A DNA stretch of 64,000 bases from Escherichia phage phiWec188: the sequence record LC739537.1; one strand, given 5' to 3'. The notes beneath the pieces are model-generated. The model worked only from the letters and a program-made list of their open reading frames with translations. It was not told the DNA's origin and ran no database searches. A program made the position numbers and the translations under genes. The first letter of the stretch is position 1, and every line of letters starts with the position of its first letter. Shown here piece after piece: positions 37,010 through 49,330 of the stretch.

Positions 37010-37040
37010 AAAAAGAAAGGGCGCTTAGTGCGCCCCTTGT
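37010..37040 (-). terminator. intrinsic terminator (minus strand)
   Basis: Minus strand: ggggcgcACTAAgcgccc then tttcttttt; just 3' of gene 37052..37471. Confidence 0.7.
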
Positions 37041-37051
37041 TTTGTTGTCGA

Positions 37052-37471
37052 TTATAAAGCTTCATAGATTGAGTATATCCGGTTCGCCAGGTCATTACGA
37101 AAGCGGAATTTTTCATCACGTTTAATCATCAGATCCTTAAAACCGCATTCTTTCAATGCTTCGTTAACTTTACTGCGGCATACTTTCATATTGTCCTGCG
37201 CGTCACCAATAAACTTATTGCTATGATGCATTGCTTTGATCTCTTCTTCCAGGACCAGGGCAACTACACGGATCGGATCAAGCTGATACGCGGTAACATC
37301 CATGCGGCATTGTAAACGGCTTTTAACGTCTGCCACCGGATATACTGCAACCTCTTCCCCGTCAACGTTCACGATAACCAGTTTACCATCAATTTCGAAG
37401 CCTTTAGCGGCGCTACCGTGACAAAAAGCGTTGTCGAAGGAGTAAGCTGGATTATTTGATTTAATGTTCAT
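37052..37471 (-). CDS. hypothetical protein
   Basis: 139 aa ORF; aaggacaacacc ATG context. Confidence 0.55.
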   Translation of the reverse strand: MNIKSNNPAYSFDNAFCHGSAAKGFEIDGKLVIVNVDGEEVAVYPVADVKSRLQCRMDVTAYQLDPIRVVALVLEEEIKAMHHSNKFIGDAQDNMKVCRSKVNEALKECGFKDLMIKRDEKFRFRNDLANRIYSIYEAL

Positions 37472-37577
37472 GGTGTTGTCCTTTGTTTCGTTTCGTTGTT
37501 TGCTGCCAGTGAGTTAAATATAATATAACGCCGATCCCCTGTCAATAGGGGATAGCGCATTATTTACATTTCTTTAC

Positions 37578-37605
37578 GTTAAAGGGCGCTTAGTGCGCCC
37601 TTGTA
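37578..37605 (-). terminator. intrinsic terminator (minus strand)
   Basis: Same gggcgcTTAGTgcgccc hairpin as at 37010; 3' of gene 37611..37979. Confidence 0.55.
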
Positions 37606-37610
37606 CAATC

Positions 37611-37979
37611 TTACTTTGTGCGGTTGTAAACGTTATCGCGTTCAACCATCAAGGCAAGGCGGATCAGTTGATCAGTTGTATCGCGTAAGCTGTCAGGCCA
37701 TGTTTTATTGTTCCAGCTATCTAAATTTGATTGAATATAGGTTTCAATGGCTTGATCCATATTGTCGAACAAGTTTGCCTCCAGGCTCTCGGCTGTTTCA
37801 CACTGGAAAGCATCAGCGACACTATTAATCAATAAGCAAGCCAGTAGATCAGCGTTGCGCCAATTTTTACGGATAGTTTCATCTTTCAGATAACCAACGA
37901 GATCAACCTTTGCGCCAGTGGTGGACGTTGCGATCACTTCTTGCGCTTTTTCAACTGCTTTAATTGCTGATTTGCTCAT
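37611..37979 (-). CDS. hypothetical protein
   Basis: 122 aa ORF; gaggaaaag RBS. Confidence 0.55.
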   Translation of the reverse strand: MSKSAIKAVEKAQEVIATSTTGAKVDLVGYLKDETIRKNWRNADLLACLLINSVADAFQCETAESLEANLFDNMDQAIETYIQSNLDSWNNKTWPDSLRDTTDQLIRLALMVERDNVYNRTK

Positions 37980-38057
37980 CTTCTTTTCCTCTTTGTGGGC
38001 TTGCTGTATTGCTCGCCCTACGCAATAACTATAAGTTAACAGGGTGTATAAAGCAAG

Positions 38058-38291
38058 CTATTTTTTATAAAATTTTTCTGCTGTGATATTCTTCCCTGTA
38101 GGCTTAACCGCTTGCAAGATCTTATCATGCGCCGGACGTCCAAAGGAATAAGATCCATAAACGGTAAACCAATAATCCCCGTCAGGTTGAACGGTTACGG
38201 CGGCGTAGGGTGTACCTCTCTCATTATCACCGATAAAGTGTGAAACATTGCCGTTAACGTTCGATTTAGTGCTTTTAATTTGTCCGATCAT
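38058..38291 (-). CDS. hypothetical protein
   Basis: 77 aa ORF; followed upstream by promoter-hairpin cassette at 38310-38370. Confidence 0.5.
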   Translation of the reverse strand: MIGQIKSTKSNVNGNVSHFIGDNERGTPYAAVTVQPDGDYWFTVYGSYSFGRPAHDKILQAVKPTGKNITAEKFYKK

Positions 38292-38309
38292 GGTGTTATT
38301 CCTATATTA

Positions 38310-38370
38310 GACGGGAAACATTCCCGCCCTACGTGATAAATAATAATATAAGCGTGATCCGGTGTCAATA
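38310..38370 (-). promoter_or_regulatory. promoter plus 5' hairpin cassette (copy 1 of 24)
   Basis: Minus strand: TTGACA, 17 bp, TATTAT, then cgggaaTGTTtcccg hairpin, then RBS/ATG of 38058..38291. Confidence 0.5.
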
Positions 38371-38542
38371 GGTAGAATTGTAAAGATTTGATAGTTTATC
38401 TCTTTGATGTTTTGTTGTTTGATAGGTGTTAGCTATCAATATATAGCGGGGTCGTCCGGTGATTACCTCCCCCGTTGCCAGTGCCGCCCGTTCAATAAGC
38501 ATAACAAAAAACAGGACAAAAACAAGCCCTGTTTTGTAAAGA

Positions 38543-38746
38543 TTAGATGATCTGCATATCCTCCACGATAATTTCTAATTTCCAAACAAGATGATCTAAG
38601 CTCCCTGATAAAAATGATTCCGATACATAACCGCCATCGGACACCGTAGCAAGGATCTCGCCATTTGCTTGCTCTTTGATTTGAACATCCAGGCGGTTAG
38701 CCTTTGCTTTATTCAGGACGGCGATCAGGCGGTTAGCTGTAGTCAT
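38543..38746 (-). CDS. hypothetical protein
   Basis: ORF 38543..38779; ATG 38746 lies after the hairpin and ggaagg RBS. Confidence 0.5.
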   Translation of the reverse strand: MTTANRLIAVLNKAKANRLDVQIKEQANGEILATVSDGGYVSESFLSGSLDHLVWKLEIIVEDMQII

Positions 38747-38765
38747 GGTGTTTTTCCTTCCAGTT

Positions 38766-38826
38766 GTGAGCGGCACCATTGCCGCCCTACGAAATACATC
38801 TTACACTATCCGGCACATCATGCAAG
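38766..38826 (-). promoter_or_regulatory. promoter plus 5' hairpin cassette
   Basis: Minus strand: TTGCAT, 16 bp, TGtaAGAT, then ggcggcAATGgtgccgc hairpin. Confidence 0.5.
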
Positions 38827-38831
38827 CTATT

Positions 38832-39023
38832 TTATACTTCGTCACCTATATAATCAGATCTGTTCTTCTCTGTCATACGCTTAAGCAATTCCTGCATATG
38901 GCTTATAGCTTGCAATGTGTCTTCTTCCAGGCTTGAATCCACATAATCAGGATCATTCTTTACCTTGCTATGGTTGTGATAACGCAACGCTGCTAATACC
39001 TTTCTAACTTGTTCTGCATTCAT
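38832..39023 (-). CDS. hypothetical protein
   Basis: 63 aa ORF; aggag RBS. Confidence 0.45.
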   Translation of the reverse strand: MNAEQVRKVLAALRYHNHSKVKNDPDYVDSSLEEDTLQAISHMQELLKRMTEKNRSDYIGDEV

Positions 39024-39035
39024 TTTTATTACTCC

Positions 39036-39170
39036 TTAAAACCAGGTGCCAACCGTTTCCAATAGGTCACTGACTACCAGAACAACACCGATTAGCACAT
39101 ATTTAACCAGGAAGGGGATTAGCGCCAGCGTTGCTACTATGATCCCCATTGTCATGATTACCTTTCTCAT
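39036..39170 (-). CDS. small membrane peptide (44 aa, not in ORF track)
   Basis: Hydrophobic (GIIVATLALIPFLVKYVLIGVVLVV); start overlaps stop of 39167..39457 (ATGA). Confidence 0.35.
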   Translation of the reverse strand: MRKVIMTMGIIVATLALIPFLVKYVLIGVVLVVSDLLETVGTWF

Positions 39171-39457
39171 TGTTGGCGGTTTACGTAAGCTTTACCGTTT
39201 ACGGTCATCGGTATGGCCTCAAGGTCTGGATCTTCCTTAAGGTCGCGTGCAAGCTCACCGCACCGGACACCCTCGAATCCGTGGTATTCTGTTTCCCCGT
39301 CCTTAAAAGTTTTAGCGGCAAGGCATAGGCGATAATTAACCCCGATCCGGTTTACTGCGTTGATATCGGTTAACGTGATCGATTCAGGCAAATCGTTAGC
39401 CATTACAGGCGCGTTAATACCAACAACCAGGGCAACTACTGCGATCATCTTTTTCAT
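39167..39457 (-). CDS. small secreted protein (signal peptide)
   Basis: MKKMIAVVALVVGINAPVMA signal-peptide-like N-terminus; 96 aa. Confidence 0.5.
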   Translation of the reverse strand: MKKMIAVVALVVGINAPVMANDLPESITLTDINAVNRIGVNYRLCLAAKTFKDGETEYHGFEGVRCGELARDLKEDPDLEAIPMTVNGKAYVNRQQ

Positions 39458-39508
39458 GTTGTCTATCCTCTTCCTATTGCGTTTAATGGGGCGTTGCCGC
39501 CCCGCTGA

Positions 39509-39733
39509 TTAATTACGTTGGCTGTTTTCTACTATCGACTTTAAAATAAAGTCAGTTACGCCCTTTGTGTCATCCGGCGGGAAGTTATCAGCATAGCACC
39601 AGGCATAAGCGCCATCAACTGGAAGCGGGAAGATATGCACGCTTAGATCCCCATAATCATATTCAGTTATTTCTACCTTGAGATCCGACAATTCAGCCAG
39701 TTTAATAGCTTGTAACATTCTAACAATACTCAT
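39509..39733 (-). CDS. hypothetical protein
   Basis: 74 aa ORF; preceded by ggggcg..cgcccc hairpin element. Confidence 0.5.
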   Translation of the reverse strand: MSIVRMLQAIKLAELSDLKVEITEYDYGDLSVHIFPLPVDGAYAWCYADNFPPDDTKGVTDFILKSIVENSQRN

Positions 39734-39772
39734 AATCTTTTCCTTTCTGATAGTGGGGCGTTGCCGCCCTTT

Positions 39773-40018
39773 TTAGAATTGACGCGTTACGCGATCGGTG
39801 TTTTCTTCCTTTACAACCTTACCTGTTGCTACCATTTCGCTGATTTTTTCATCGTTGATAATGTTGTTATTCTCTTTGATCCAGGTCCAACGATTACCCA
39901 TCAAAGTATTCCCTTTTAACGCATAATACCAAATGTTGTTAGGCATTTTGATCCAAGCCATACCGCGCGAATTTTTCGGGTCGTGGTAGATATTGCCAAT
40001 TTTAGTTGTCTGGTACAT
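39773..40018 (-). CDS. hypothetical protein
   Basis: 81 aa ORF; cassette at 40042-40098 upstream. Confidence 0.5.
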   Translation of the reverse strand: MYQTTKIGNIYHDPKNSRGMAWIKMPNNIWYYALKGNTLMGNRWTWIKENNNIINDEKISEMVATGKVVKEENTDRVTRQF

Positions 40019-40041
40019 GATGTTTTACCTTTTTCCAGGAA

Positions 40042-40098
40042 GCGGGAACTATTCCCGCCCTACGTGGTAAATATTATCATATTGACGATCCGTGTCAA
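40042..40098 (-). promoter_or_regulatory. promoter plus 5' hairpin cassette
   Basis: TTGACA, then TGATAATAT-type -10, then gcgggaATAGTtcccgc hairpin. Confidence 0.5.
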
Positions 40099-40118
40099 TA
40101 GTTTTTTGGAGTTTTTAC

Positions 40119-40520
40119 TTACAGGCCCAAGATAGCCCGTGCATCGTTACGCTGTTTAGTCTCAGTCATGATCATATTTAAAATGGTCGGATTAATATAA
40201 CCTTTCTCCATAGCTTCGCGGACTGGTACATCATAAGCACCGAAACCAGTGCGAACGATACGCACATCATTCAGATTAGTGTTATAGATCCCGCCTAAAT
40301 CAACCGACTGGAAAACGGCATCAACACTATATTCAGTGTTGCCATCGTTGACGTTTTCGATCTCAATGTTGCGAGACACCGCCCAACGTTTACAGCCTCC
40401 AATCAGGTAGCATTGTTCCTTTGTCAGATTACCATTGGAAACCGCATATTTCAGGGCTTCAGCGCCGAAAGTTTTAGCAATGTTAACAACGTCAGTATAA
40501 GAAAGGATCGTAATGTTCAT
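40119..40520 (-). CDS. hypothetical protein
   Basis: 133 aa ORF; cassette at 40541-40597 upstream. Confidence 0.55.
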   Translation of the reverse strand: MNITILSYTDVVNIAKTFGAEALKYAVSNGNLTKEQCYLIGGCKRWAVSRNIEIENVNDGNTEYSVDAVFQSVDLGGIYNTNLNDVRIVRTGFGAYDVPVREAMEKGYINPTILNMIMTETKQRNDARAILGL

Positions 40521-40540
40521 GGTTATAACTCCAAATGGTG

Positions 40541-40597
40541 AGCGGCACCATTGCCGCCCTACGTGGTAAATATTATCACACTGGTGATCTGTGTCAA
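40541..40597 (-). promoter_or_regulatory. promoter plus 5' hairpin cassette
   Basis: Minus strand TTGACA ... -10 ... ggcggcAATGgtgccgc ... RBS. Confidence 0.5.
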
Positions 40598-40622
40598 TAC
40601 TATTTATTCAATATAAATAAAA

Positions 40623-40847
40623 TTATGATGTGCGCTCAATTATGATAATGGTCTGTGGGATCTCGTTTTCTGCCACTATCAGGGCTTTTTTCTGCGTGAT
40701 AGTTATTTTAACACGTTGCAACGATGCGGTAAAGTCTTTCATTTCGTTATGTGCGGACTTGCTGCAATGCCAGATCTCAGGCTTACCAACTTGTAAGCCG
40801 CGTAAAAATTCCGTTTTGCCTGCTTTGTTCGTGAACATTTGTTTCAC
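40623..40847 (-). CDS. hypothetical protein
   Basis: 74 aa ORF. Confidence 0.45.
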   Translation of the reverse strand: MKQMFTNKAGKTEFLRGLQVGKPEIWHCSKSAHNEMKDFTASLQRVKITITQKKALIVAENEIPQTIIIIERTS

Positions 40848-40848
40848 C

Positions 40849-40953
40849 TTAACCGATACCGTGAGAAGATAGGATCATATTAGCCATAGTTGCAACCACT
40901 CCAACCGATAACGCCAGGCCAACTATTGCAACCGTGAAAATTTTCTCTAACAT
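40849..40953 (-). CDS. small membrane peptide (34 aa; start uncertain)
   Basis: ORF 40849..41052; ATG 40953 preceded by gaggg and located after the hairpin element. Confidence 0.3.
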   Translation of the reverse strand: MLEKIFTVAIVGLALSVGVVATMANMILSSHGIG

Positions 40954-41036
40954 GATGCTACCCTCTTTAATGGGCGTTGCCTTATTGCCCCGCCCTACGT
41001 GATACACTTTACCAGAAAACAAAATACTGTCAAGAT

Positions 41037-41174
41037 TTATTTTACTTCCCAAACGGAAAATTCACTACCTGGCGGGATCATTCTTTTAATCTTGTTTGCT
41101 GCTGCTACCAGGTCCACGGCTTGCACTGTAATAATATAACCAATTGTCGAGGCTGTTGCATTGAAAGTTTTCAT
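41037..41174 (-). CDS. small hypothetical protein (45 aa, not in ORF track)
   Basis: ATG 41174 preceded by gaggg; cassette hairpin at 41193-41210 just upstream. Confidence 0.35.
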   Translation of the reverse strand: MKTFNATASTIGYIITVQAVDLVAAANKIKRMIPPGSEFSVWEVK

Positions 41175-41232
41175 TATATTACCCTCACCATCGGCGGCAC
41201 CATTGCCGCCCTACAAGATGAATACTACGCGC

Positions 41233-41415
41233 TTACTTTGCTGTTGTCAACAAGGGGCGAAAAAACTTTTTGATCTGGCTTGCTGTTAGGCGCATATCTG
41301 CTTTGAGCGTTGCCAGGCGATAAGCCTTACCCTTAATCAGTTTATGGTGTCCGGTGCCGTTGCCGATGATAACATCAATTTCACACAATACACGGGAAGA
41401 ATCAATCTTTTTCAT
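41233..41415 (-). CDS. hypothetical protein
   Basis: 60 aa ORF. Confidence 0.45.
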   Translation of the reverse strand: MKKIDSSRVLCEIDVIIGNGTGHHKLIKGKAYRLATLKADMRLTASQIKKFFRPLLTTAK

Positions 41416-41463
41416 CTTGTTACCTTTCTTGTTATGGGGCGCTTGTCGCCCCTGGTTTATGGT

Positions 41464-41649
41464 TTATTTGACTATGTGACGATCATTATATTCAGTGTAA
41501 AACTCGCAACCATCGTCACGACTATCAAGTTTAACAATGTAACCAGTTTGATAACGTTCAATAGATACCATTGCATAAAACTTACCATTCAGGATATTTC
41601 TAACCAGATCGCCTTTTACCAATTCTTTCGTTTTCTTGTAAGTAGTCAT
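41464..41649 (-). CDS. hypothetical protein
   Basis: ORF 41464..41700; ATG 41649 downstream of hairpin. Confidence 0.5.
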   Translation of the reverse strand: MTTYKKTKELVKGDLVRNILNGKFYAMVSIERYQTGYIVKLDSRDDGCEFYTEYNDRHIVK

Positions 41650-41669
41650 GATGTTTTCTCTTCTGTTAG

Positions 41670-41726
41670 GCGGGGCGCTTGTCGCCCCTATGTGATACAT
41701 CTTATCAGGTTGATTCAGCTTGTCAA
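41670..41726 (-). promoter_or_regulatory. promoter plus 5' hairpin cassette (stem variant ggggcg/cgcccc)
   Basis: TTGACA, spacer, TGATAAGAT, then ggggcgACAAGcgcccc hairpin. Confidence 0.5.
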
Positions 41727-41727
41727 A

Positions 41728-41907
41728 CTATTTGTTAGCCGGATTATATGCCAGGACCGCGCCACTTGCTTTCACGCTTTCCGCTTCATAGTTGCGCAGA
41801 TCGTTTTCTGTAAGATTGAGCGCGATCACTTCCTCGATCTCAATACCAGTGGCAAGGGCGATCTCTTTAATGATGTTTGATGATCTGATAACGTTTACTG
41901 TTTTCAT
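41728..41907 (-). CDS. hypothetical protein
   Basis: ORF 41728..41964; ATG 41907 chosen (MKTVNV...). Confidence 0.45.
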   Translation of the reverse strand: MKTVNVIRSSNIIKEIALATGIEIEEVIALNLTENDLRNYEAESVKASGAVLAYNPANK

Positions 41908-41917
41908 GGTGTGCACC

Positions 41918-42037
41918 TTATAAGATGATTGATAAGATAGTGATAACGAAAGCGATAACACCAACGGCGATCGTAGTCTTACGCCCTTCGGATACTGCCG
42001 GATTCTCTACCGTGTATTCTACTGTGTATTTGTTCAT
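41918..42037 (-). CDS. small membrane peptide (39 aa, not in ORF track)
   Basis: ATG 42037 preceded by gagagga; C-terminal TM segment IAVGVIAFVITILSII. Confidence 0.3.
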   Translation of the reverse strand: MNKYTVEYTVENPAVSEGRKTTIAVGVIAFVITILSIIL

Positions 42038-42136
42038 TGTGTTATCCTCTCGCTTGCTTTGGGAACTATTCCCGCCGCCCTATGAATTAAATATACACTA
42101 TCTCAAAATGATTGCAAACCTTTTTCTAAATTATTT

Positions 42137-42421
42137 TTATGCAGTAAATAAACCATCGTTTACAACGGCGGCGATGATCTCCCGTGCCATTGATTCAGGG
42201 AACGGGGCGCTATAGTCCTGGCTTGTCTCGTCGCTGTCTGTTACCCAATGATAAGCCAACGAGTAAAAGCCTTTACTCCCTGTTTTCAGTGAAACGATGA
42301 TCACTCGGTTAAGTCCATCGGTAAACGTTGCCGTTAATGTGCTATCATCTTGCGTCATGTTGGACAAGTAAGCGGCATCATTAACCAGGGAAAACAGTAG
42401 CACCGTGTTAGCTTTAACCAT
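42137..42421 (-). CDS. hypothetical protein
   Basis: ORF 42137..42451; ATG 42421 after hairpin. Confidence 0.5.
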   Translation of the reverse strand: MVKANTVLLFSLVNDAAYLSNMTQDDSTLTATFTDGLNRVIIVSLKTGSKGFYSLAYHWVTDSDETSQDYSAPFPESMAREIIAAVVNDGLFTA

Positions 42422-42440
42422 AGTTTGATCCTCAAACGAG

Positions 42441-42497
42441 CGCGGTACCATTGCCGCCCTACGTGATACATCTTATCAGGTCTGATTATGGTGTCAA
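42441..42497 (-). promoter_or_regulatory. promoter plus 5' hairpin cassette
   Basis: TTGACA, 16 bp, TGATAAGAT, gtatcacgtag, then ggcggcAATGgtaccgc hairpin. Confidence 0.55.
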
Positions 42498-42503
42498 CCA
42501 CTT

Positions 42504-42689
42504 TTAAAGATATTTTATACTGATAACATTTTCAGGTTTAACCTGGTTATGATAAGCATCAATGTAAATCAAACCATCATTAGATAAGCCCAGGATCACG
42601 CCTTGCGCAATAAATCCGTATTCGTCGCGGTAACGGGCTGCTACTTTGTTCGTTGCGTTGTAGGCGGTTTTAATCTCGTTTAAGGTCAT
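42504..42689 (-). CDS. hypothetical protein
   Basis: 61 aa ORF. Confidence 0.45.
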   Translation of the reverse strand: MTLNEIKTAYNATNKVAARYRDEYGFIAQGVILGLSNDGLIYIDAYHNQVKPENVISIKYL

Positions 42690-42713
42690 GTGCTGTTATC
42701 CTCTCGTTAGATA

Positions 42714-42745
42714 TAAGAAAGGGCGCTATTTGCGCCCTTGTTTTG
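42714..42745 (-). terminator. intrinsic terminator (minus strand)
   Basis: gggcgcAAATAgcgccc hairpin with flanking A/T runs; third copy of this terminator type. Confidence 0.5.
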
Positions 42746-42892
42746 TTAGTCTTCCAGGTCCAGCCATGCACGTTTATCGGTGCGGTCGCGCTTAGTCTTG
42801 TTGCGCTTGTCGCCCTTGCGGACCACTTCTTCATTCCACGCTGCGCGAGTTTTGGAAGATTGGATTTTTTCGGCGCGATTAGATGTATTCAT
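42746..42892 (-). CDS. small basic protein (48 aa, not in ORF track)
   Basis: ATG 42892 preceded by agagga and the cassette at 42914-42972; replaces shadow plus ORF 42743..42982. Confidence 0.4.
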   Translation of the reverse strand: MNTSNRAEKIQSSKTRAAWNEEVVRKGDKRNKTKRDRTDKRAWLDLED

Positions 42893-42913
42893 GATGTTTC
42901 CTCTTTTTGTTGT

Positions 42914-42972
42914 GAGCGGCACCATTGCCGCCCTACGTGTTTAAATTTACTTTATTGTTTGATGCCTGTCAA
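42914..42972 (-). promoter_or_regulatory. promoter plus 5' hairpin cassette
   Basis: TTGACA ... -10 ... ggcggcAATGgtgccgc. Confidence 0.5.
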
Positions 42973-42988
42973 CTACTTTTAAAACTTT

Positions 42989-43342
42989 TTATTCGTGGGA
43001 AAGTGCAAGGATCACTCCTGCAAGGTATAGCCAATAGTTTTCCCTTTCTTTCTGGATCTTGCTTTCGCTGCTACGCTCGCTAATGTATCCCCAGGATGTT
43101 AACAACCGATCTACTTCCCAATATTCGAAAGCGATATTGATATCTGACGGTAAACCTTGTAACCATGAGGCTATTGCTCTGATAACGTTATGATTGTAGT
43201 ATTCTTGGTTATAGGGATACCAGTACTCATTCTTAAAACGTCGCATCAATTCCGCGATCTTCTCTTTCTCTTCTGTGATGCTATACTCGCTATAATCAAT
43301 TGAGGCCAGAATATAAAGTTTAATTGCATTTTGTGCTTTCAT
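42989..43342 (-). CDS. hypothetical protein
   Basis: 117 aa ORF; cassette upstream at 43362-43420. Confidence 0.55.
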   Translation of the reverse strand: MKAQNAIKLYILASIDYSEYSITEEKEKIAELMRRFKNEYWYPYNQEYYNHNVIRAIASWLQGLPSDINIAFEYWEVDRLLTSWGYISERSSESKIQKERENYWLYLAGVILALSHE

Positions 43343-43361
43343 GGTGTCTCTCTTCTGTTGT

Positions 43362-43420
43362 GAGCGGCACCATTGCCGCCCTACGTGTTACATCTTACCG
43401 GATTTTTAAAACTTGTCAAT
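43362..43420 (-). promoter_or_regulatory. promoter plus 5' hairpin cassette
   Basis: TTGACA, spacer, TAAGAT, then canonical hairpin. Confidence 0.5.
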
Positions 43421-43641
43421 CATTTTTCTACTATCATTTGATATCCTGTTTCAATGTTAGTAAACACCGTGATCCCGTCCTGGCGTTCACTCATAAGGAA
43501 GCAAGGCGCTAACATCCTTCCTACTTCCTTGCACTCGTTATAAGCGGCGGTGATATCTCCTGCTGCTTTGTCTTCGGTGGTGAATGTATCGTTCACGTAA
43601 ACTTGACCAGCGACAACGGCGACAATAGCGAAAGTGATCAT
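43420..43641 (-). CDS. hypothetical protein
   Basis: 73 aa ORF. Confidence 0.45.
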   Translation of the reverse strand: MITFAIVAVVAGQVYVNDTFTTEDKAAGDITAAYNECKEVGRMLAPCFLMSERQDGITVFTNIETGYQMIVEK

Positions 43642-43721
43642 GATGTTTTCTCTCTTTGTGATAAGTGGTTTCTCTTCTCAATAGCGCCTATTGAGCGGGG
43701 CGCTATTACGAAGGGCTAACC

Positions 43722-43889
43722 TTATTTGTTACGGCTTAACGTGCCCAAGTTATCAGCATGACGCAGACCAGGGAAGATCCACGCGCCTGATGTATCTTTT
43801 ACAGGGGCTTTAAGCGTAGCGCCCAGGTTGGCGGCGTTAACTTTACGTGCAACGTTGCGAGCGGCTTCACGGGTAGTAAAAGTAATCAT
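43722..43889 (-). CDS. small hypothetical protein (55 aa, not in ORF track)
   Basis: ATG 43889 preceded by agaggaaaa; hairpin variant ggcggtgg..ccgccgcc upstream. Confidence 0.4.
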   Translation of the reverse strand: MITFTTREAARNVARKVNAANLGATLKAPVKDTSGAWIFPGLRHADNLGTLSRNK

Positions 43890-43978
43890 GATGTTTTCCT
43901 CTTCTCTTTGTTAGGCGGTGGACCATTCCGCCGCCTTGATGTAATACAGTTTACTTTATTTTATGGGGATTGCAAGCT

Positions 43979-44194
43979 TTAATTTAAGATTGTTAGTGTA
44001 AAATTGTAATCCCCTGCCTGATATACTACCTTGTTGCTAAAAGTTCCAACACGTTTCACATTGCAATATATACCCATAACACTTTTTACATCTTTGATGT
44101 TCTTAACGCCTGTAATGTCTTTATTGAAATAATCGTGATCGGAAAATAAAACTCGACTTGCATTTTTTAACAGTGTGCGGATATTAGCCATCAT
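43979..44194 (-). CDS. hypothetical protein
   Basis: ORF 43979..44224; ATG 44194 after hairpin. Confidence 0.5.
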   Translation of the reverse strand: MMANIRTLLKNASRVLFSDHDYFNKDITGVKNIKDVKSVMGIYCNVKRVGTFSNKVVYQAGDYNFTLTILN

Positions 44195-44213
44195 GATAAT
44201 CTCTCTTCTTGCT

Positions 44214-44270
44214 GGCGGCACCATTGCCGCCCTACGTAATACAGTTTACTCTTTTTCTTTCCCGTGTCAA
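44214..44270 (-). promoter_or_regulatory. promoter plus 5' hairpin cassette
   Basis: TTGACA ... ggcggcAATGgtgccgcc. Confidence 0.5.
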
Positions 44271-44279
44271 CAATCTTTT

Positions 44280-44507
44280 TCAGATTAATTCGTCCAGGCA
44301 TAACAGGCGATCAACGTTGAGATCGGTCAGGCTGATGGTTGGCACCTGATAAGATTCGATGTACTCAACGCTCGCATATTCCCCAAAATTAGCAATAGCC
44401 CACTTATTCAAGATCTCACATACATCATTAATCTTTTTATTTGTTACAACGGCTATAACCTGGGAAGTGCCAACGGTGCCGGATACGCGAACAATATTGA
44501 TAGCCAT
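44280..44507 (-). CDS. hypothetical protein
   Basis: 75 aa ORF. Confidence 0.5.
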   Translation of the reverse strand: MAINIVRVSGTVGTSQVIAVVTNKKINDVCEILNKWAIANFGEYASVEYIESYQVPTISLTDLNVDRLLCLDELI

Positions 44508-44594
44508 GATTTTTCTCTCTTCTGTTAGGCGGGGCGCTTGTCGCCCCTATGTGATACATCTTACACTAATTTAAAACGTTGTCAACTGTTTTTA

Positions 44595-44834
44595 TTACAT
44601 TCCGACCATCGCGGCGCGGATCGCAGTAGTGCTATATTTGAAACCGTCTGGAGTCTTATCTTGTCCAGTCTCTTGTAAAAATAGCATCATATGACGGGCC
44701 GCATCATTGCGATTAGTGCTATCGTTAATAAAGTCCAGGGCCAACCGATACAATGATTCATCGTTGTTAATCCAAAGGCTTACATTCCAATGATTTTTAT
44801 TTTTGTGACCTAAGAACATTTTTGATTTAGCCAT
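44595..44834 (-). CDS. hypothetical protein
   Basis: 79 aa ORF. Confidence 0.5.
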   Translation of the reverse strand: MAKSKMFLGHKNKNHWNVSLWINNDESLYRLALDFINDSTNRNDAARHMMLFLQETGQDKTPDGFKYSTTAIRAAMVGM

Positions 44835-44923
44835 GATGTTAATCTCTCTTTGAGTGGGGCGGGAACTATTCCCGCGCCCTATGTAATACAGTTTACTCTT
44901 TTTATTCGTGCTGTCAACGTCTT

Positions 44924-45289
44924 TTATAAATCTTTTTTACGCTTAACATCGCTTGCATGACTGTATACAGCGATCCCATTGTCACGGCAAAAACGGGAAA
45001 GATAGCTGCCGCGTGAAAATTCTTTGCCTTCAAGGTTGATAACCTTGCTAAATTCTTCCAGGGCGACGGTATCAAAATGATCACCATAGCCATATTGAAA
45101 CGGAACGTTAACCACTTCAATCAATTTACCGCAGATCTCGACGTCCACACTTAAAGAAAAATATGTATTACCGTAGGACTGTTGAAACCAGCGACGGGCG
45201 CTAATGTGCACTGCTTCAATGCTGGATAGTTCGATTTTAGCAGTGTTAGCCAGGGTAGCATAAGCGGACACATTGATATTTTTAGCCAT
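44924..45289 (-). CDS. hypothetical protein
   Basis: 121 aa ORF. Confidence 0.55.
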   Translation of the reverse strand: MAKNINVSAYATLANTAKIELSSIEAVHISARRWFQQSYGNTYFSLSVDVEICGKLIEVVNVPFQYGYGDHFDTVALEEFSKVINLEGKEFSRGSYLSRFCRDNGIAVYSHASDVKRKKDL

Positions 45290-45386
45290 GTTCTTACTCT
45301 CTCTTTTTGGTTAGTGGGAAGTATTCCCGATAAAAGTTATTATGCTTGTACTATCGCCTATTGTCAATAGCACAAGACTAAAACTT

Positions 45387-45566
45387 TTAACGATAATCAT
45401 TATAGGCTTGATTGACCTGACGAATGTAACATTCGAAAGCAAGATCAATATATTCGTATTCATGCACATAATCCCCATAGGTTACTACATACATTCCTAA
45501 CGTTTCCTTATATGTCAGAAGAATGGAATCTAAGCCCACGATTTCAGTTTTTGCAATGATAGCCAT
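45387..45566 (-). CDS. small hypothetical protein (59 aa, not in ORF track)
   Basis: ATG 45566 located after cassette hairpin 45588-45605. Confidence 0.4.
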   Translation of the reverse strand: MAIIAKTEIVGLDSILLTYKETLGMYVVTYGDYVHEYEYIDLAFECYIRQVNQAYNDYR

Positions 45567-45587
45567 GATGATAACCTTTTTATTGTT

Positions 45588-45644
45588 GGCGGCACCATTG
45601 CCGCCCTACGTGATAAACTATAACAGAATTTTAAACAGTGTCAA
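45588..45644 (-). promoter_or_regulatory. promoter plus 5' hairpin cassette
   Basis: TTGACA, spacer, TAGTTTATCAC -10 region, then ggcggcAATGgtgccgcc. Confidence 0.5.
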
Positions 45645-45655
45645 ACGTTTTTTTC

Positions 45656-45901
45656 TTAGTTTGCGAAATATGGTGCGGCGGCTGATGCCGTTAAGCTCCA
45701 AGTGATTTGGCTATCGATCAAGTATTCTTCATTCTTGATCCGCACGGTATCAATCGAGAAGTTACTAAAAGGCTTGCTTTTAATTTTACGAACAACCGTT
45801 ACACGACGGTTATTTTTCATCTCTTTTAACTGAATCCAGGCGTAACCTTTTTCATTAACAAAGATTTCATTGTGATTGGTGATAGATGATAAGTGTTTCA
45901 T
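45656..45901 (-). CDS. hypothetical protein
   Basis: 81 aa ORF. Confidence 0.5.
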   Translation of the reverse strand: MKHLSSITNHNEIFVNEKGYAWIQLKEMKNNRRVTVVRKIKSKPFSNFSIDTVRIKNEEYLIDSQITWSLTASAAAPYFAN

Positions 45902-45991
45902 GATATTCTCTCTTCTGTTTTGAGCGGTGGACCATTCCGCCGCCCTATGTGATACAGCTTACTACTTTTTGAAACGTTGTCAAGGATATTT

Positions 45992-46273
45992 TTAACTGTA
46001 TGATCCGCACCGCTCGCAATAGTGATCATCGTCGTCATCTGCCGCCTGGCTGATAAAGTGATCAACCTTTGATTTCAGGCTTTTATAATTGTTCTCAACT
46101 TCCTGTAGTCGTCGCTGGTAATATTCCAGGGCTTGCACATATGCCGCTTGTTCGGTTTTCGCTTGCATCGATAAATTCATGCCGCGCGTTTCATCGTATA
46201 GCCAATAACCATCGTTGCATTCACTGATCGATAGGGTAGGGCTTAGTTTTTCGTGACTAATTACCTTGCTCAT
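45992..46273 (-). CDS. hypothetical protein (C-terminal CxxC)
   Basis: 93 aa ORF. Confidence 0.5.
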   Translation of the reverse strand: MSKVISHEKLSPTLSISECNDGYWLYDETRGMNLSMQAKTEQAAYVQALEYYQRRLQEVENNYKSLKSKVDHFISQAADDDDDHYCERCGSYS

Positions 46274-46283
46274 AGTGTCCGCC

Positions 46284-46475
46284 TTATAGAATGACTACGT
46301 TATCTTTTTCGTGCAATGTGGCGGTAATGTTACGCCCCTTGTTGCAAGTTAGCGAGATCTTGCGGTGATGCGGTGGCACTTTTTCAATGTGCGCTACTGT
46401 CATTGTGATCCGGTGCAATTCTACCTTGTCACCTGCTTTCAATGTTGCTACGTTGCCAGTGATATTTTTAAACAT
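46284..46475 (-). CDS. hypothetical protein
   Basis: 63 aa ORF. Confidence 0.45.
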   Translation of the reverse strand: MFKNITGNVATLKAGDKVELHRITMTVAHIEKVPPHHRKISLTCNKGRNITATLHEKDNVVIL

Positions 46476-46485
46476 GGTGTGCCCC

Positions 46486-46596
46486 TTACTTGAAAATGAT
46501 TGTTGTGATAACTGCTACGGTGATCCAAAATGGAACAACCAAGATAATAGCGTTAATCGTTCCAACTGTCAAACTGTTTTCTTTCTTGATCATCAT
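46486..46596 (-). CDS. small membrane peptide (36 aa; start uncertain)
   Basis: ORF 46486..46716 trimmed to ATGATG at 46596; a second 27-aa hydrophobic ORF (46604..46687) lies just upstream. Confidence 0.3.
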   Translation of the reverse strand: MMIKKENSLTVGTINAIILVVPFWITVAVITTIIFK

Positions 46597-46761
46597 GTTT
46601 TCCTTACAGTGTCCAAAGAATGATTTCAAGTGCAGCACGGAAACCAGGAATAAAATTGATTGCAAAAAACAGGGAAGTAGTAAACATTTTTCTATCCTTT
46701 CGGTTGTGAGCGGCACCGTTGCCGCCCTATGAGTTAACTATAAGTGATCACGTTTTACCTG

Positions 46762-47319
46762 TCAACCTAAATCATCAAAATAAAGATAATTTTTTTCGGC
46801 TTCTTTCTTCTCTTCTTGTGATGCCTCAAAGACTGGAAGGAAGTGATCAAAGGTGATGCACTCAACCGCGTGATCGTCTTCCTCTTCCTGGTCTTCCTCC
46901 TGGGCTATGGCTGCAATTTTGGCCAATTTCCTTTCAGCTTGGATCAGCTTACCATCTAATACGCTTTTTGCAGTACTGTACGCCGTCCAGGTGATGCGCT
47001 TACTTTCGAGCGCGGCATCAAGCGCCGCTATCTTGCTGGGGTATTCATCCAGGACACGAAAAGCCGGATCTACCTTGTACAGCGGATTATCTTTCGCGCC
47101 GTCGCTATCATCTGCGGCGCTTGCAATGTCAGCGTTACCATTTGCCAGCCAACCAGGGCGATCGCTGCGTGTTTTGGTATTCCCATGACTACGCGCCGAT
47201 CTGTTGCCTACTTGCTCGCCACTATAGCCAGGAGCATGATCGATCATGTCGTCCGGTATAATGCGCGGATCATTAACGTCATGTTTTACCCAGGACTGGA
47301 TCACATATTCGCGCCCCAT
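46762..47319 (-). CDS. hypothetical acidic protein
   Basis: 185 aa ORF; acidic C-terminal third. Confidence 0.55.
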   Translation of the reverse strand: MGREYVIQSWVKHDVNDPRIIPDDMIDHAPGYSGEQVGNRSARSHGNTKTRSDRPGWLANGNADIASAADDSDGAKDNPLYKVDPAFRVLDEYPSKIAALDAALESKRITWTAYSTAKSVLDGKLIQAERKLAKIAAIAQEEDQEEEDDHAVECITFDHFLPVFEASQEEKKEAEKNYLYFDDLG

Positions 47320-47579
47320 TATACACCCCTTTTAACAATCATTTCACACACAAAAAATAAGCTGGCGGAATCACGGCAAGGATAGAAAGATGTACGATAA
47401 TCTCTCACCCCTCCTTTTATGATCTCCGTGGTTTTACCTGATAGCACATTGTAAATAGTGTAACTTGTCGGACTGTTTTTATATACCTTGCCAGGGTAGA
47501 TCATAACATAACGAGCAAGGTTATAAAATTCCTCATTACGAAAGGCTATGATCTTCCCGCATACCTTAAGAAAGTGCAC
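47319..47579 (-). CDS. hypothetical protein
   Basis: 86 aa ORF. Confidence 0.45.
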   Translation of the reverse strand: MHFLKVCGKIIAFRNEEFYNLARYVMIYPGKVYKNSPTSYTIYNVLSGKTTEIIKGGVRDYRTSFYPCRDSASLFFVCEMIVKRGV

Positions 47580-47589
47580 GTTAGCCCCC

Positions 47590-47862
47590 TTACAGCAAAA
47601 AGTTTACTTGTCTTGCTGTTAATGTAGTATCAACCATTTTCGGGCTTTTATAATCCACAAAGCGCGCGGTTTTTTCAATAGCGAAACCTAAATAATCTTG
47701 CTTGTTGAAATTACATTCTTTCTTAAATGTTTCCCGCGCTACGGCGATCGCTGCGTCCAGGGATAAGCGCCCGTCAATATTGATGTTAGCGAAAGATCCG
47801 CCACCGCTCATAGGTTTGCCAGTGGTGCCAGTTACGATCATTGTTGCGCTATATGATGCCAT
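47590..47862 (-). CDS. hypothetical protein
   Basis: ORF 47590..47898; ATG 47862 follows the hairpin. Confidence 0.5.
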   Translation of the reverse strand: MASYSATMIVTGTTGKPMSGGGSFANINIDGRLSLDAAIAVARETFKKECNFNKQDYLGFAIEKTARFVDYKSPKMVDTTLTARQVNFLL

Positions 47863-47884
47863 GATGATAATCTCTCTTAGTTGT

Positions 47885-47946
47885 GAGCGGTGGACCATTC
47901 CGCCGCTCTACGTGATACATCTTATCAGGTTGTTGCGTATTGTCAA
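47885..47946 (-). promoter_or_regulatory. promoter plus 5' hairpin cassette
   Basis: TTGACA, 16 bp, TGATAAGAT, gtatcacgtag, then gagcggcggAATGGtccaccgctc hairpin. Confidence 0.55.
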
Positions 47947-47952
47947 TACTTT

Positions 47953-48150
47953 TTATTCTTCACCCGCGATACGGCGGACACGTTCGGATTTAGTAGCGTG
48001 TTGGTCTTCTGTAATGACTCCCATTTCTAACAGGGAATCAATGAAAGATAGCACCGTTTCATGATCATCTTGAGGATGACTAAATTCAGTAAAGCCGTTT
48101 ACCACTACGTTGATTTGTCCTGCTTTCGCTACTATGTGCAATGTTGCCAT
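47953..48150 (-). CDS. hypothetical protein
   Basis: ORF 47953..48240; ATG 48150 downstream of cassette. Confidence 0.5.
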   Translation of the reverse strand: MATLHIVAKAGQINVVVNGFTEFSHPQDDHETVLSFIDSLLEMGVITEDQHATKSERVRRIAGEE

Positions 48151-48169
48151 GATCTTAACTCCAGATAGT

Positions 48170-48230
48170 GAGCAGCACCATTGCCGCCCTACGTGATGAA
48201 TAGTACGCCGCCACCTGGCGAACGTCAACC
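48170..48230 (-). promoter_or_regulatory. promoter plus 5' hairpin cassette (last copy)
   Basis: TTGACG -35 variant; hairpin with one G-U pair (ggcggcAATGgtgctgc). Confidence 0.45.
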
Positions 48231-48337
48231 ACTTTTTCAATCTTTTTCATTTCTTTTTTGCTTGCTATATATAAAGGAAAGGGCTATTATCTTTCTACCG
48301 CGCCAACCAGGGCGCACAACAAAGAAAGGGCGACACC

Positions 48338-48847: not shown

Positions 48848-49070
48848 CCTGCCCGTCATTCTCTAAATGAGAATGATTATCATTTACCTTATTGAATAAA
48901 AATCAATCTTATTTGGATAGTTGAATGAGAATCAATCTCATTCGCAAGGTGAGAATAAATCTCATTTACGCTATTGAATGCGAATCATTCGTATTTACCA
49001 TGTTAAATGAGAATCATTATCATTCTCATTCGTATTTCGATTTTAAGTGAGAATAATTCTCATTTCGGTA
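48848..49070. repeat. six tandem copies of the TGAGAAT-N-ATTCTCA palindrome (Fur-box-like)
   Basis: aatgagaatgattatcattta, aatgagaatcaatctcattcg, ggtgagaataaatctcattta, aatgcgaatcattcgtattta, aatgagaatcattatcattctcattcg, agtgagaataattctcatttcgg. Confidence 0.55.
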
Positions 49071-49080
49071 ATTTTCACGC

Positions 49081-49330
49081 AAACTTTAGAATTTGCTTTT
49101 CAACTTTCACTTTTGTAAAAGCAAAAAAACTTTAAATACCTGGTGCGCGCGACTTTTTTAAAAATTTTTCTCGGTTTTTTGTTTTGCAATCTGGTCCACC
49201 CATTTGAGATAATGTGTGTAAACTTTAGAATTTGGTTTTGGATTCTCGTTTTTGTAAACTCATAAAAAGTTTAAATAATTGTAGGGATTTTTGAGATAGT
49301 TTGCTTGTAAGATTTGAGATAATCTTTCCT
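49081..49330. repeat. direct repeats (about 40 bp, two copies) plus three tttgagata motifs
   Basis: aaactttagaatttgcttttcaactttcacttttgtaaaagc (49081) versus aaactttagaatttggttttggattctcgtttttgtaaactc (49224); tttgagata at about 49203, 49291, 49313. Confidence 0.5.

Follow-up and report, generated by a model that had tools for sequence, protein, structure and literature searches.

The window analyzed, i.e., the whole stretch of 64,000 nucleotides (nt) of Escherichia phage phiWec188 (sequence record LC739537.1), belongs to a Phapecoctavirus (Stephanstirmvirinae) and carries on its minus strand an array of 27 hairpin units (U1–U27), each located before a small hypothetical gene, whose stem sequences differ from copy to copy while the two arms stay complementary. 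Escherichia phage phiWec190 was 100% identical to the window over positions 41645–48300, and approximately 200 related coliphages matched the region at 85–92%. The phiWec190 genes annotated at 37052–48150 were all present unchanged in the window, with one indel as the single exception, and the gene set used for the array was the annotation of this identical phage, which replaced a rough home-made gene caller. The array genes encode 30–185 amino acids, are all annotated as hypothetical and all lie on the minus strand, so that the repeat has to be read on that strand. A preceding inspection of the nucleotide letters (the sequence-only reading) had placed the array at 38300–48235; it begins about 300 nt earlier, at 37997, with five promoter-less hairpins also included.

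A sigma-70 promoter with TTGACA-like and TAnnnT hexamers 16–18 nt apart was present in 22 of the 27 units, and the typical unit consists, from 5' to 3', of TTGACA, a spacer of 16–17 nt, TAnnnT, seven nt of which the last is a C, then a purine followed by UA, the GC hairpin, a leader and ATG. The hairpin stems are 6–10 bp long and GC-rich, the leader hairpins having free energies of −12 to −17 kcal/mol and fold z-scores of −2.5 to −3.5 (in U16, −14.9 kcal/mol and −2.55, with the Shine-Dalgarno sequence, SD, unpaired). The leader between the hairpin and the ATG is 17–23 nt long and A/G-rich, and contains an SD that is unpaired in the minimum-energy fold. Each of the five units without a promoter has its hairpin just past the stop codon of the preceding gene. 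A hairpin was located within 35 nt of the start codon in 27 out of 28 array intergenic gaps of at least 39 nt, compared to none in the gaps of 10–12 nt between coupled genes. Pairing began mostly 9–11 nt past the −10 hexamer in the 146 promoter-linked units collected from ten phage regions. The start region of the cassette has the conserved form C|R-U-A (R, purine), whose purine, 8 nt past the −10 hexamer and preceded by a pyrimidine, is the predicted +1. With transcription starting at this purine, the promoter geometry predicts that the stem would begin 2–4 nt into the RNA; in the commonest hairpin type, the pairing also takes in the G and U of GUA, opposite an AC further downstream, so that the predicted 5' end would itself be base-paired. 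Promoter-like sites numbered 49 in the window against 28.3 ± 5.0 in shuffled sequence, and the best of them were cassette copies.

Within the window alone the hairpins fall into about five subfamilies, whose spread is due to duplication and recombination (Table 1). The type GGGCGGCA-AUGG-UGCCGCYC is present in 10 copies, or 11 with the one at 42441, which has a C.A mismatch; the others are GGGGCG-ACAAG-CGCCCC, GGGCGGGAA-UAG/UGU-UUCCCGYYU (two copies and a third with a bulged C), (G/A)(G/A)GCGGCGGA-AUGG-UCCACCGCYY (three copies) and GGG(G)CG-GCAA-CGCCC(C) (two copies). The terminator-like hairpin at 42719 is of a class different from the leader hairpins. At least eight loop sequences occur, AUGG, ACAAG, UAG, UGU, GUGGU, GCAA/GUAA and UUAA among them. 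Some details of the sequence-only reading had to be amended: its gagcggtgg/ccgccgctc stem, of 9–10 bp, is not fully complementary (T.G on the plus strand is C.A in the RNA); of its gcggga/tcccgc group, the copies at 42061 and 45316 are reduced to five base pairs (GGGAA/UUCCC); and its wobble at 48170 is a G.U in the minus-strand RNA only, being an A.C on the plus strand.

Table 1. Coordinates of the hairpin array, its units and the associated features (window positions unless a comparison region is named; hairpin sequences as minus-strand RNA)
Feature	Position	Strand	Remarks
Whole array, U1–U27	37997–48228	−	27 hairpin units; from sequence scans and the phiWec190 gene set
Typical unit, U16	43362–43419	−	TTGACA 43419–43414, 16-nt spacer, TAAGAT, GTAACAC, G (predicted +1), UA, hairpin
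U16 hairpin, GGGCGGCA-AUGG-UGCCGCUC	43381–43362	−	ATG at 43342, 19 nt further
GGGCGGCA/UGCCGCYC hairpin	38768–38787	−	
GGGCGGCA/UGCCGCYC, further copies	40540–40559, 41193–41210, 42914–42933, 44214–44231, 45588–45605, 46708–46727	−	
GGGCGGCA/UGCCGCYC copy	48170–48189	−	G.U
GGGCGGCA/UGCCGCYC copy	42441–42458	−	C.A mismatch
GGGGCG-ACAAG-CGCCCC	41672–41688	−	
GGGGCG-ACAAG-CGCCCC	44531–44547	−	promoter present
GGGGCG-ACAAG-CGCCCC	41436–41452	−	promoter-less, directly past the upstream stop codon
GGGCGGGAA-UAG-UUCCCGCUU	40040–40060	−	
Relatives of GGGCGGGAA-UAG-UUCCCGCUU	38309–38329, 44856–44879	−	two G.U pairs in the first, bulged C in the second
Degenerate remnants of the GGGCGGGAA type	42061–42073, 45316–45328	−	5 bp
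Long hairpin GAGCGGCGGA-AUGG-UCCACCGCUC	47885–47908	−	internal C.A
Other long hairpins of the 47885 type	45922–45945, 43913–43936	−	
GGGGCG-GCAA-CGCCCC	39488–39503	−	promoter-less, intercistronic, GNRA loop
Shorter GCAA-loop copy	39756–39769	−	promoter-less
Terminator-like hairpin AAGGGCGC-AAAUA-GCGCCCUU	42719–42739	−	promoter-less; followed by UCUU
Same terminator-like type	37016–37038, 37582–37602	−	
U17, two mutually exclusive hairpins, AAUAGCGCC...GGCGCUAUU and CUCAAUAG-GCG-CUAUUGAG	43677–43707	−	promoter-less (no convincing promoter)
Recombination junction	41657–41667		11-nt TTCTCTTCTGTT-like leader stretch common to two cassette copies; from the comparison with phiWec190
Classical promoter-early stem-loop layout, ATCCCCU-auugac-AGGGGAU	37553–37534	−	hairpin over −35 TTGACA
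Classical promoter-early stem-loop layout, CUUGUGCUAUUG-acaauagg-CGAUAGUACAAG	45376–45345	−	hairpin over −35 TTGACA
Classical promoter-early stem-loop layout	20505–20460	−	terminator inside the promoter (spacer), outside the array
phiWec190 gene starts in the hairpin loop	38779, 42451, 44224, 47898	−	
SD-preceded ATG downstream of these starts	38746, 42421, 44194, 47862	−	
Coupling junctions TAAGGnGnnACACCATG	40839–40848, 41908–41917, 46274–46283, 46476–46485, 47580–47589		
Repeats beside the array	48865–49066, 48856–49019, 49081–49277		
Stretch of about 1.5 kb in relatives, no genes annotated	L001 1971–3553; L004 1019–2637; L005 1630–3230		comparison regions

Covariation was scored on a gapless, N-padded and loop-anchored alignment of 32 distinct hairpins taken from ten regions (the window, phiWec190, PsgM04F, Schickermooser, TSP7_1, tuntematon, ESCO25, ASO2A, phi92 and FV3), which replaced plain MAFFT alignments of units or hairpins, where the stem types fell in different registers and no single structure was possible. 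At the seven inner pairs 95.0% of the cells paired versus 67.7 ± 2.2% in shuffled data (none of 500 shuffles reached the observed value), a change on both sides was found at all seven, and the covariation score was 0.621 versus 0.177, figures that are tilted towards structure by the anchoring on predicted loops and that count hairpin types, not independent events. When the partner column was slid by 1–3 positions as a control, the pairing was 39–62%. In a separate permutation of the 17 distinct arm pairs, which comprise 12 distinct 5' arms, 97 cells out of 102 were paired versus 68.9 ± 3.5 in the permuted data, and the observed value was reached in none of 20,000 permutations. The claim of the sequence-only reading that the stems differ between copies and yet stay complementary was right in substance, including its types and coordinates, and this formal analysis supports its interpretation that the structure is under selection. 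The hairpin would act through its structure, with the sequence being free to vary, as the covariation indicates.

Evidence closer to independent events than the hairpin-type alignment is provided by the orthologous leaders of the relatives: a hairpin of −8 kcal/mol or better was kept in 82 out of 92, and in 57 of these 82 the paired sequence was different. In-place double changes were found at U4, where GGGGCG/CGCCCC in the window corresponds to AGGGCG/CGCCCU in tuntematon (outer pair A-U), and at U21, where GGG(C)GCGGGAA/UUCCCGCCCC in the window corresponds to GAG(A)GCGGGAA/UUCCCGCCUC in four relatives (GGG..CCC to GAG..CUC). The loop GCAA of the 39488 hairpin is changed to GUAA in orthologues, both being GNRA loops. 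At U16, U20 and U26 the hairpin type was replaced, while the promoter and the gene were unchanged. Single changes occurred in both directions: the window has G.U at U27 and U2 and C.A at U13, ESCO25 has a C.A at U2, and the C.A of the window at U26 is a C-G pair in PsgM04F. The sequence-only reading had named, as the finding that would speak against it, a variation explained by three or four repeat subfamilies with no structural constraint, and the in-place doubles, the type swaps and the hairpins retained in the orthologous leaders show a different picture. The U9 gene, preceded by a promoter and a hairpin in the window, has in three relatives a different hairpin (GGCGGGA-UUAA-UCCCGCC) and no promoter; because of this and of the five promoter-less units, the hairpin appears to be tied to the message, not to the promoter. 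In TSP7_1 and ESCO25, a TATAAT is located inside the hairpin loop of the U17 orthologue.

Recombination between the cassettes was evident from two comparisons. The phage phiWec190 has an extra 848 bp with three genes between window positions 41649 and 41728, and the two cassettes meeting at this indel junction carry different hairpins. PsgM04F shows a fusion at a shared GTAGGGCG, by which the promoter of U2 has been joined to the hairpin of U1, and the gene between them is gone. The cassette also occurs in other phages: one 80-nt unit matched 150 phage records, and in phi92 (Justusliebigvirus) and FV3 (Vequintavirus) promoter, RUA and hairpin follow each other as in the window, the further stems there including GGCGGGAAA-UGG-UUUCCCGCC and GGCGGGAA-AAC-UUCCCGCC. 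The cassette layout, therefore, spans two phage subfamilies, Stephanstirmvirinae and Vequintavirinae, and its host phages (the phapecoctaviral window, Justusliebigvirus and Vequintavirus) are not T4-like myoviruses. A gene starting with MALKKLTS is present together with a nearly identical cassette in FV3 (region L009, 8726–8800) and in phi92 (region L008, 15250–15325), which makes both the cassette and the gene common across the subfamilies.

The nearest known system is that of the promoter-early stem-loop (PeSL) cassettes of the T4-like phages RB49/phi1, T4/PST and KVP40/nt-1 (Arbiol et al., 2010, PMC2839356; Comeau et al., 2014, PMC4122927), whose stem-loops are mostly positioned upstream of or inside the promoter and were shown to terminate transcription; in RB49, the stem-loop is downstream of the −10 in one of five subclasses. 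The two systems have several key properties in common: repeated intergenic cassettes of about 80–100 bp with a near-consensus sigma-70 promoter, a GC-rich stem-loop, SD and ATG; clustering among small genes of unknown function in a plastic region; stems that differ between subfamilies; and indels between close relatives with junctions in the cassettes, here the 848-bp indel, the PsgM04F fusion and the swaps at U16, U20 and U26. In contrast to the PeSLs, the present cassettes belong to Stephanstirmvirinae and Vequintavirinae, which are unrelated myovirus subfamilies, their stem-loop is fixed downstream of the −10 and is predicted to be wholly transcribed as the 5' end of the cassette mRNA, and they have no T-run, a terminator role thus finding no support by sequence criteria only. 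The unit can be described as a PeSL-like cassette in which the stem-loop has shifted to the 5' leader. Hairpins in the classical PeSL layout are also present in the window, two of them over a −35 hexamer and one, outside the array, inside the promoter spacer.

It has been proposed for the PeSL stem-loops that they stop read-through from the upstream cassette, and a similar role as terminator or attenuator appears improbable for the hairpins described here. It would agree with their GC-rich and stable folds, with the promoter-less copies directly past stop codons and with the RB49 experiment in which a PeSL stem-loop placed between a promoter and lacZ cut the expression about as much as rrnB T1 (PMC2839356); furthermore, GenBank record MZ726793 (ASO2A) labels such hairpins, directly past annotated promoters, as 'rho-independent terminator' on the basis of WebGeSTer. 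However, the leader hairpin is downstream of its own promoter and as a terminator would stop the transcript of its own cassette, and the constant distance between it and the +1 would be unnecessary for a terminator. The terminator scan of the minus strand called none of the leader hairpins, and no T-run follows them, while T-run terminators were called on this strand only at 37038–37016, 42739–42719 and 38535–38508 and make up a separate class. The leader hairpins resemble intrinsic terminators in being GC-rich hairpins of 6–10 bp, but differ from them in having no U-tract and in being placed between a promoter and the gene it drives; an intrinsic terminator function was rejected because of the lack of T-runs. 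If the hairpins are 5' stabilizers, a recurring annotation error, with leader hairpins labeled as terminators, would be corrected.

A second alternative is that a protein encoded by the phage or the host binds the hairpin and co-ordinates all the early cassettes; it could be a translational repressor, an RNA chaperone or a factor for antitermination as at nut boxB or put. A conserved sequence, CRTAGGGCGG, which adjoins the 5' arm and extends into it, was counted 21 times in the window where 2.15 are expected by chance, always on the minus strand and in 18 of the 21 cases in cassette copies, so that the 5' arm and the preceding RUAG are conserved in sequence as well; with such a site, a single regulator could shut off about 25 genes together. 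The location just past early promoters resembles that of nutL/nutR in lambda and put in HK022, which are likewise encoded there as RNA hairpins. Lambda boxB has a conserved loop that is read by N, with boxA alongside, and HK022 put is a 70-nt two-stem fold. The hairpins of the array, in contrast, have diverse loops and inner stems (at least eight loops and 12 arm types), the CRTAG box is absent from the promoter-less copies, a boxA-like element was not found in a check by eye, and the Rfam search of the whole window at the gathering threshold matched no family. With no conserved loop and no second element, nut/put-like antitermination was set aside, and a protein site of any of these kinds is very unlikely. 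A single palindromic operator was rejected as unlikely because the stem and loop variants are too many, in agreement with the sequence-only reading, which had argued against a sequence-specific operator.

The best explanation, to which a probability of roughly one half is assigned, is that the hairpin is a transcribed RNA stem-loop, 5'-terminal or intercistronic, which stabilizes and insulates each small mRNA within a gene-shuffling cassette. Each unit would represent a self-contained early expression cassette of the minus strand, whose hairpin is transcribed and acts as RNA by its shape, not its sequence. A base-paired 5' end is known to slow down RNase E, and the ompA and papA mRNAs are stabilized by 5' stem-loops (review PMC3997798, citing Emory, 1992; Bouvet and Belasco, 1992; Bricker and Belasco, 1999). 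The 5'-terminal stem-loop of the cassettes may similarly keep the 5' end out of reach of RppH and of RNase E entering in a 5'-end-dependent manner, resulting in longer-lived short mRNAs, and may insulate the ribosome-binding site from the upstream sequence, while in the promoter-less units it might cap either the 3' end of the upstream cistron or, after processing, the 5' end of the downstream one. The repeated cassettes would serve as short homologies, by which recombination adds, deletes and swaps small genes in the manner of the PeSL cassettes. The fold, its covariation, the constant geometry, the lack of terminator features, the recombination junctions and the occurrence in two phage subfamilies are demonstrated by the sequences, and the start site, RNA as the active form and the stabilization are inferred. 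A 5' stem-loop in the phi10 transcripts of T7 is a phage analog of the ompA and papA stabilizers. The simple hairpin a few nt from the (here predicted) 5' end with an unstructured ribosome-binding site following it is common to the cassettes and to ompA hp1 and papA, and so is the action by structure, not sequence, which fits the covariation. In contrast to these single, experimentally proven elements, however, the start site and the stabilizing effect are predicted for the cassettes, and the hairpins form a multi-copy, recombining family that is also present inside operons without a promoter.

Several observations weigh against this explanation. The leader hairpin is absent at six other strong promoters of the window (18143, 20505, 22745, 24485, 27045 and 54678), and a start at the predicted purine would leave up to 3 nt unpaired in several types, which may allow some access of RppH. 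No hairpin is left in several orthologues, namely those of U4 and U17 in two phages each and that of U27 in one, and the hairpins of U12 and U22 have shrunk to 5-bp remnants, so that some genes, at least, can do without it. The mismatches on the sense strand were about equally G.U (8) and A.C (6), and such a spectrum gives no pointer to the minus-strand RNA over DNA or the other strand. The stem divergence of 7.3% did not clearly differ from that of the spacer (9.0%) and the leader (10.3%), in a comparison whose promoter categories were partly misregistered, so that purifying selection is visible only in the kind of change, not in its rate. Finally, no start-site map, RNA structure or half-life for these phages was found in the literature.

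The same symmetry of mismatches, stem rates and hairpin losses would be expected if the inverted repeat mattered as DNA or not at all, its complementarity being kept by template switching, gene conversion or recombination and the repeats persisting as substrates of gene shuffling. Recombination between cassettes was directly seen, and many of the 'compensatory' differences are whole-type swaps among existing subfamilies (U16, U20, U26, U11). This possibility is nevertheless considered unlikely: neither of the two mapped junctions falls within the hairpin, one being located next to it in the leader and the other in the adjoining GTAGGGCG box, the hairpins are kept at promoter-less positions with unrelated flanks, and complementarity is kept in each of the twelve arm types. 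Moreover, the position relative to the +1 and the SD is fixed across two phage subfamilies, the hairpin always has the orientation of the gene, and the change from GCAA to GUAA keeps a GNRA loop, which is meaningful only in the sense RNA. The sequence-only reading had left the choice between an RNA stem-loop and a DNA cruciform; the wobble count does not separate the two and the context alone favors RNA. The tentative preference for RNA rests on the co-orientation, the fixed distances to the +1 and the SD, the promoter-less operon copies and the GNRA-keeping loop changes.

On top of the RNA stem-loop explanation, a wider proposal can be put forward tentatively, with the odds being against it: at least two subfamilies of large Escherichia coli myoviruses (the relatives of phAPEC8/phi92 and of rV5) might share a portable module of promoter, structured 5' end and ribosome-binding site with two jobs, i.e., providing new small genes with a decay-resistant 5' cap and supplying homologies for exchange, so that selection would act on the RNA fold while recombination would reshuffle the pairing of folds and genes. 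No description or test of these hairpins was found in the literature on phages related to phAPEC8, phi92 and rV5. If they are 5' stabilizers, they would represent a genome-wide and apparently undescribed way to prolong the life of about 25 tiny early mRNAs, their at least 12 natural interchangeable stems would make a test set for the influence of 5' structure on mRNA life and yield, and the PeSL-type modular shuffling would be extended beyond the T4-like phages. If they are inert, the finding would come down to a repeat family with palindromic content only.

Four genes in the phiWec190 annotation start at an AUG within the hairpin loop (GGCGGCA-AUGG-UGCC) with no SD before it, and an ATG preceded by an SD is present 30–36 nt downstream of each (Table 1). 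These four starts are probably mis-annotated and would be corrected if the hairpins are 5' stabilizers. A second repeated junction of the array, of the 'coupling' kind, is represented by five 10-nt gene junctions of the form TAAGGnGnnACACCATG; they have no hairpin, and their stop codon and SD share nucleotides.

Several host labels among the matching records look doubtful: OR584014.1, which is recorded as 'Pseudomonas phage PsgM04F', is 92% identical to this coliphage region, and other matches to the region are entered under 'Campylobacter phage' (several records) or 'Acinetobacter phage' (one record). At the upstream edge of the array (about 35.5–37.0 kb of the window), approximately 1.5 kb is without annotated genes in all relatives. 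In the non-coding region beside the array, a partly palindromic sequence of 22 nt (GAATGAGAATCAATCTCATTCG-like) is repeated in seven copies, mostly at intervals of 29 nt, together with an 82-nt tandem pair and a 58-nt pair; a repeat_region is annotated at this place in tuntematon, and the repeats could be origin iterons or operator sites.

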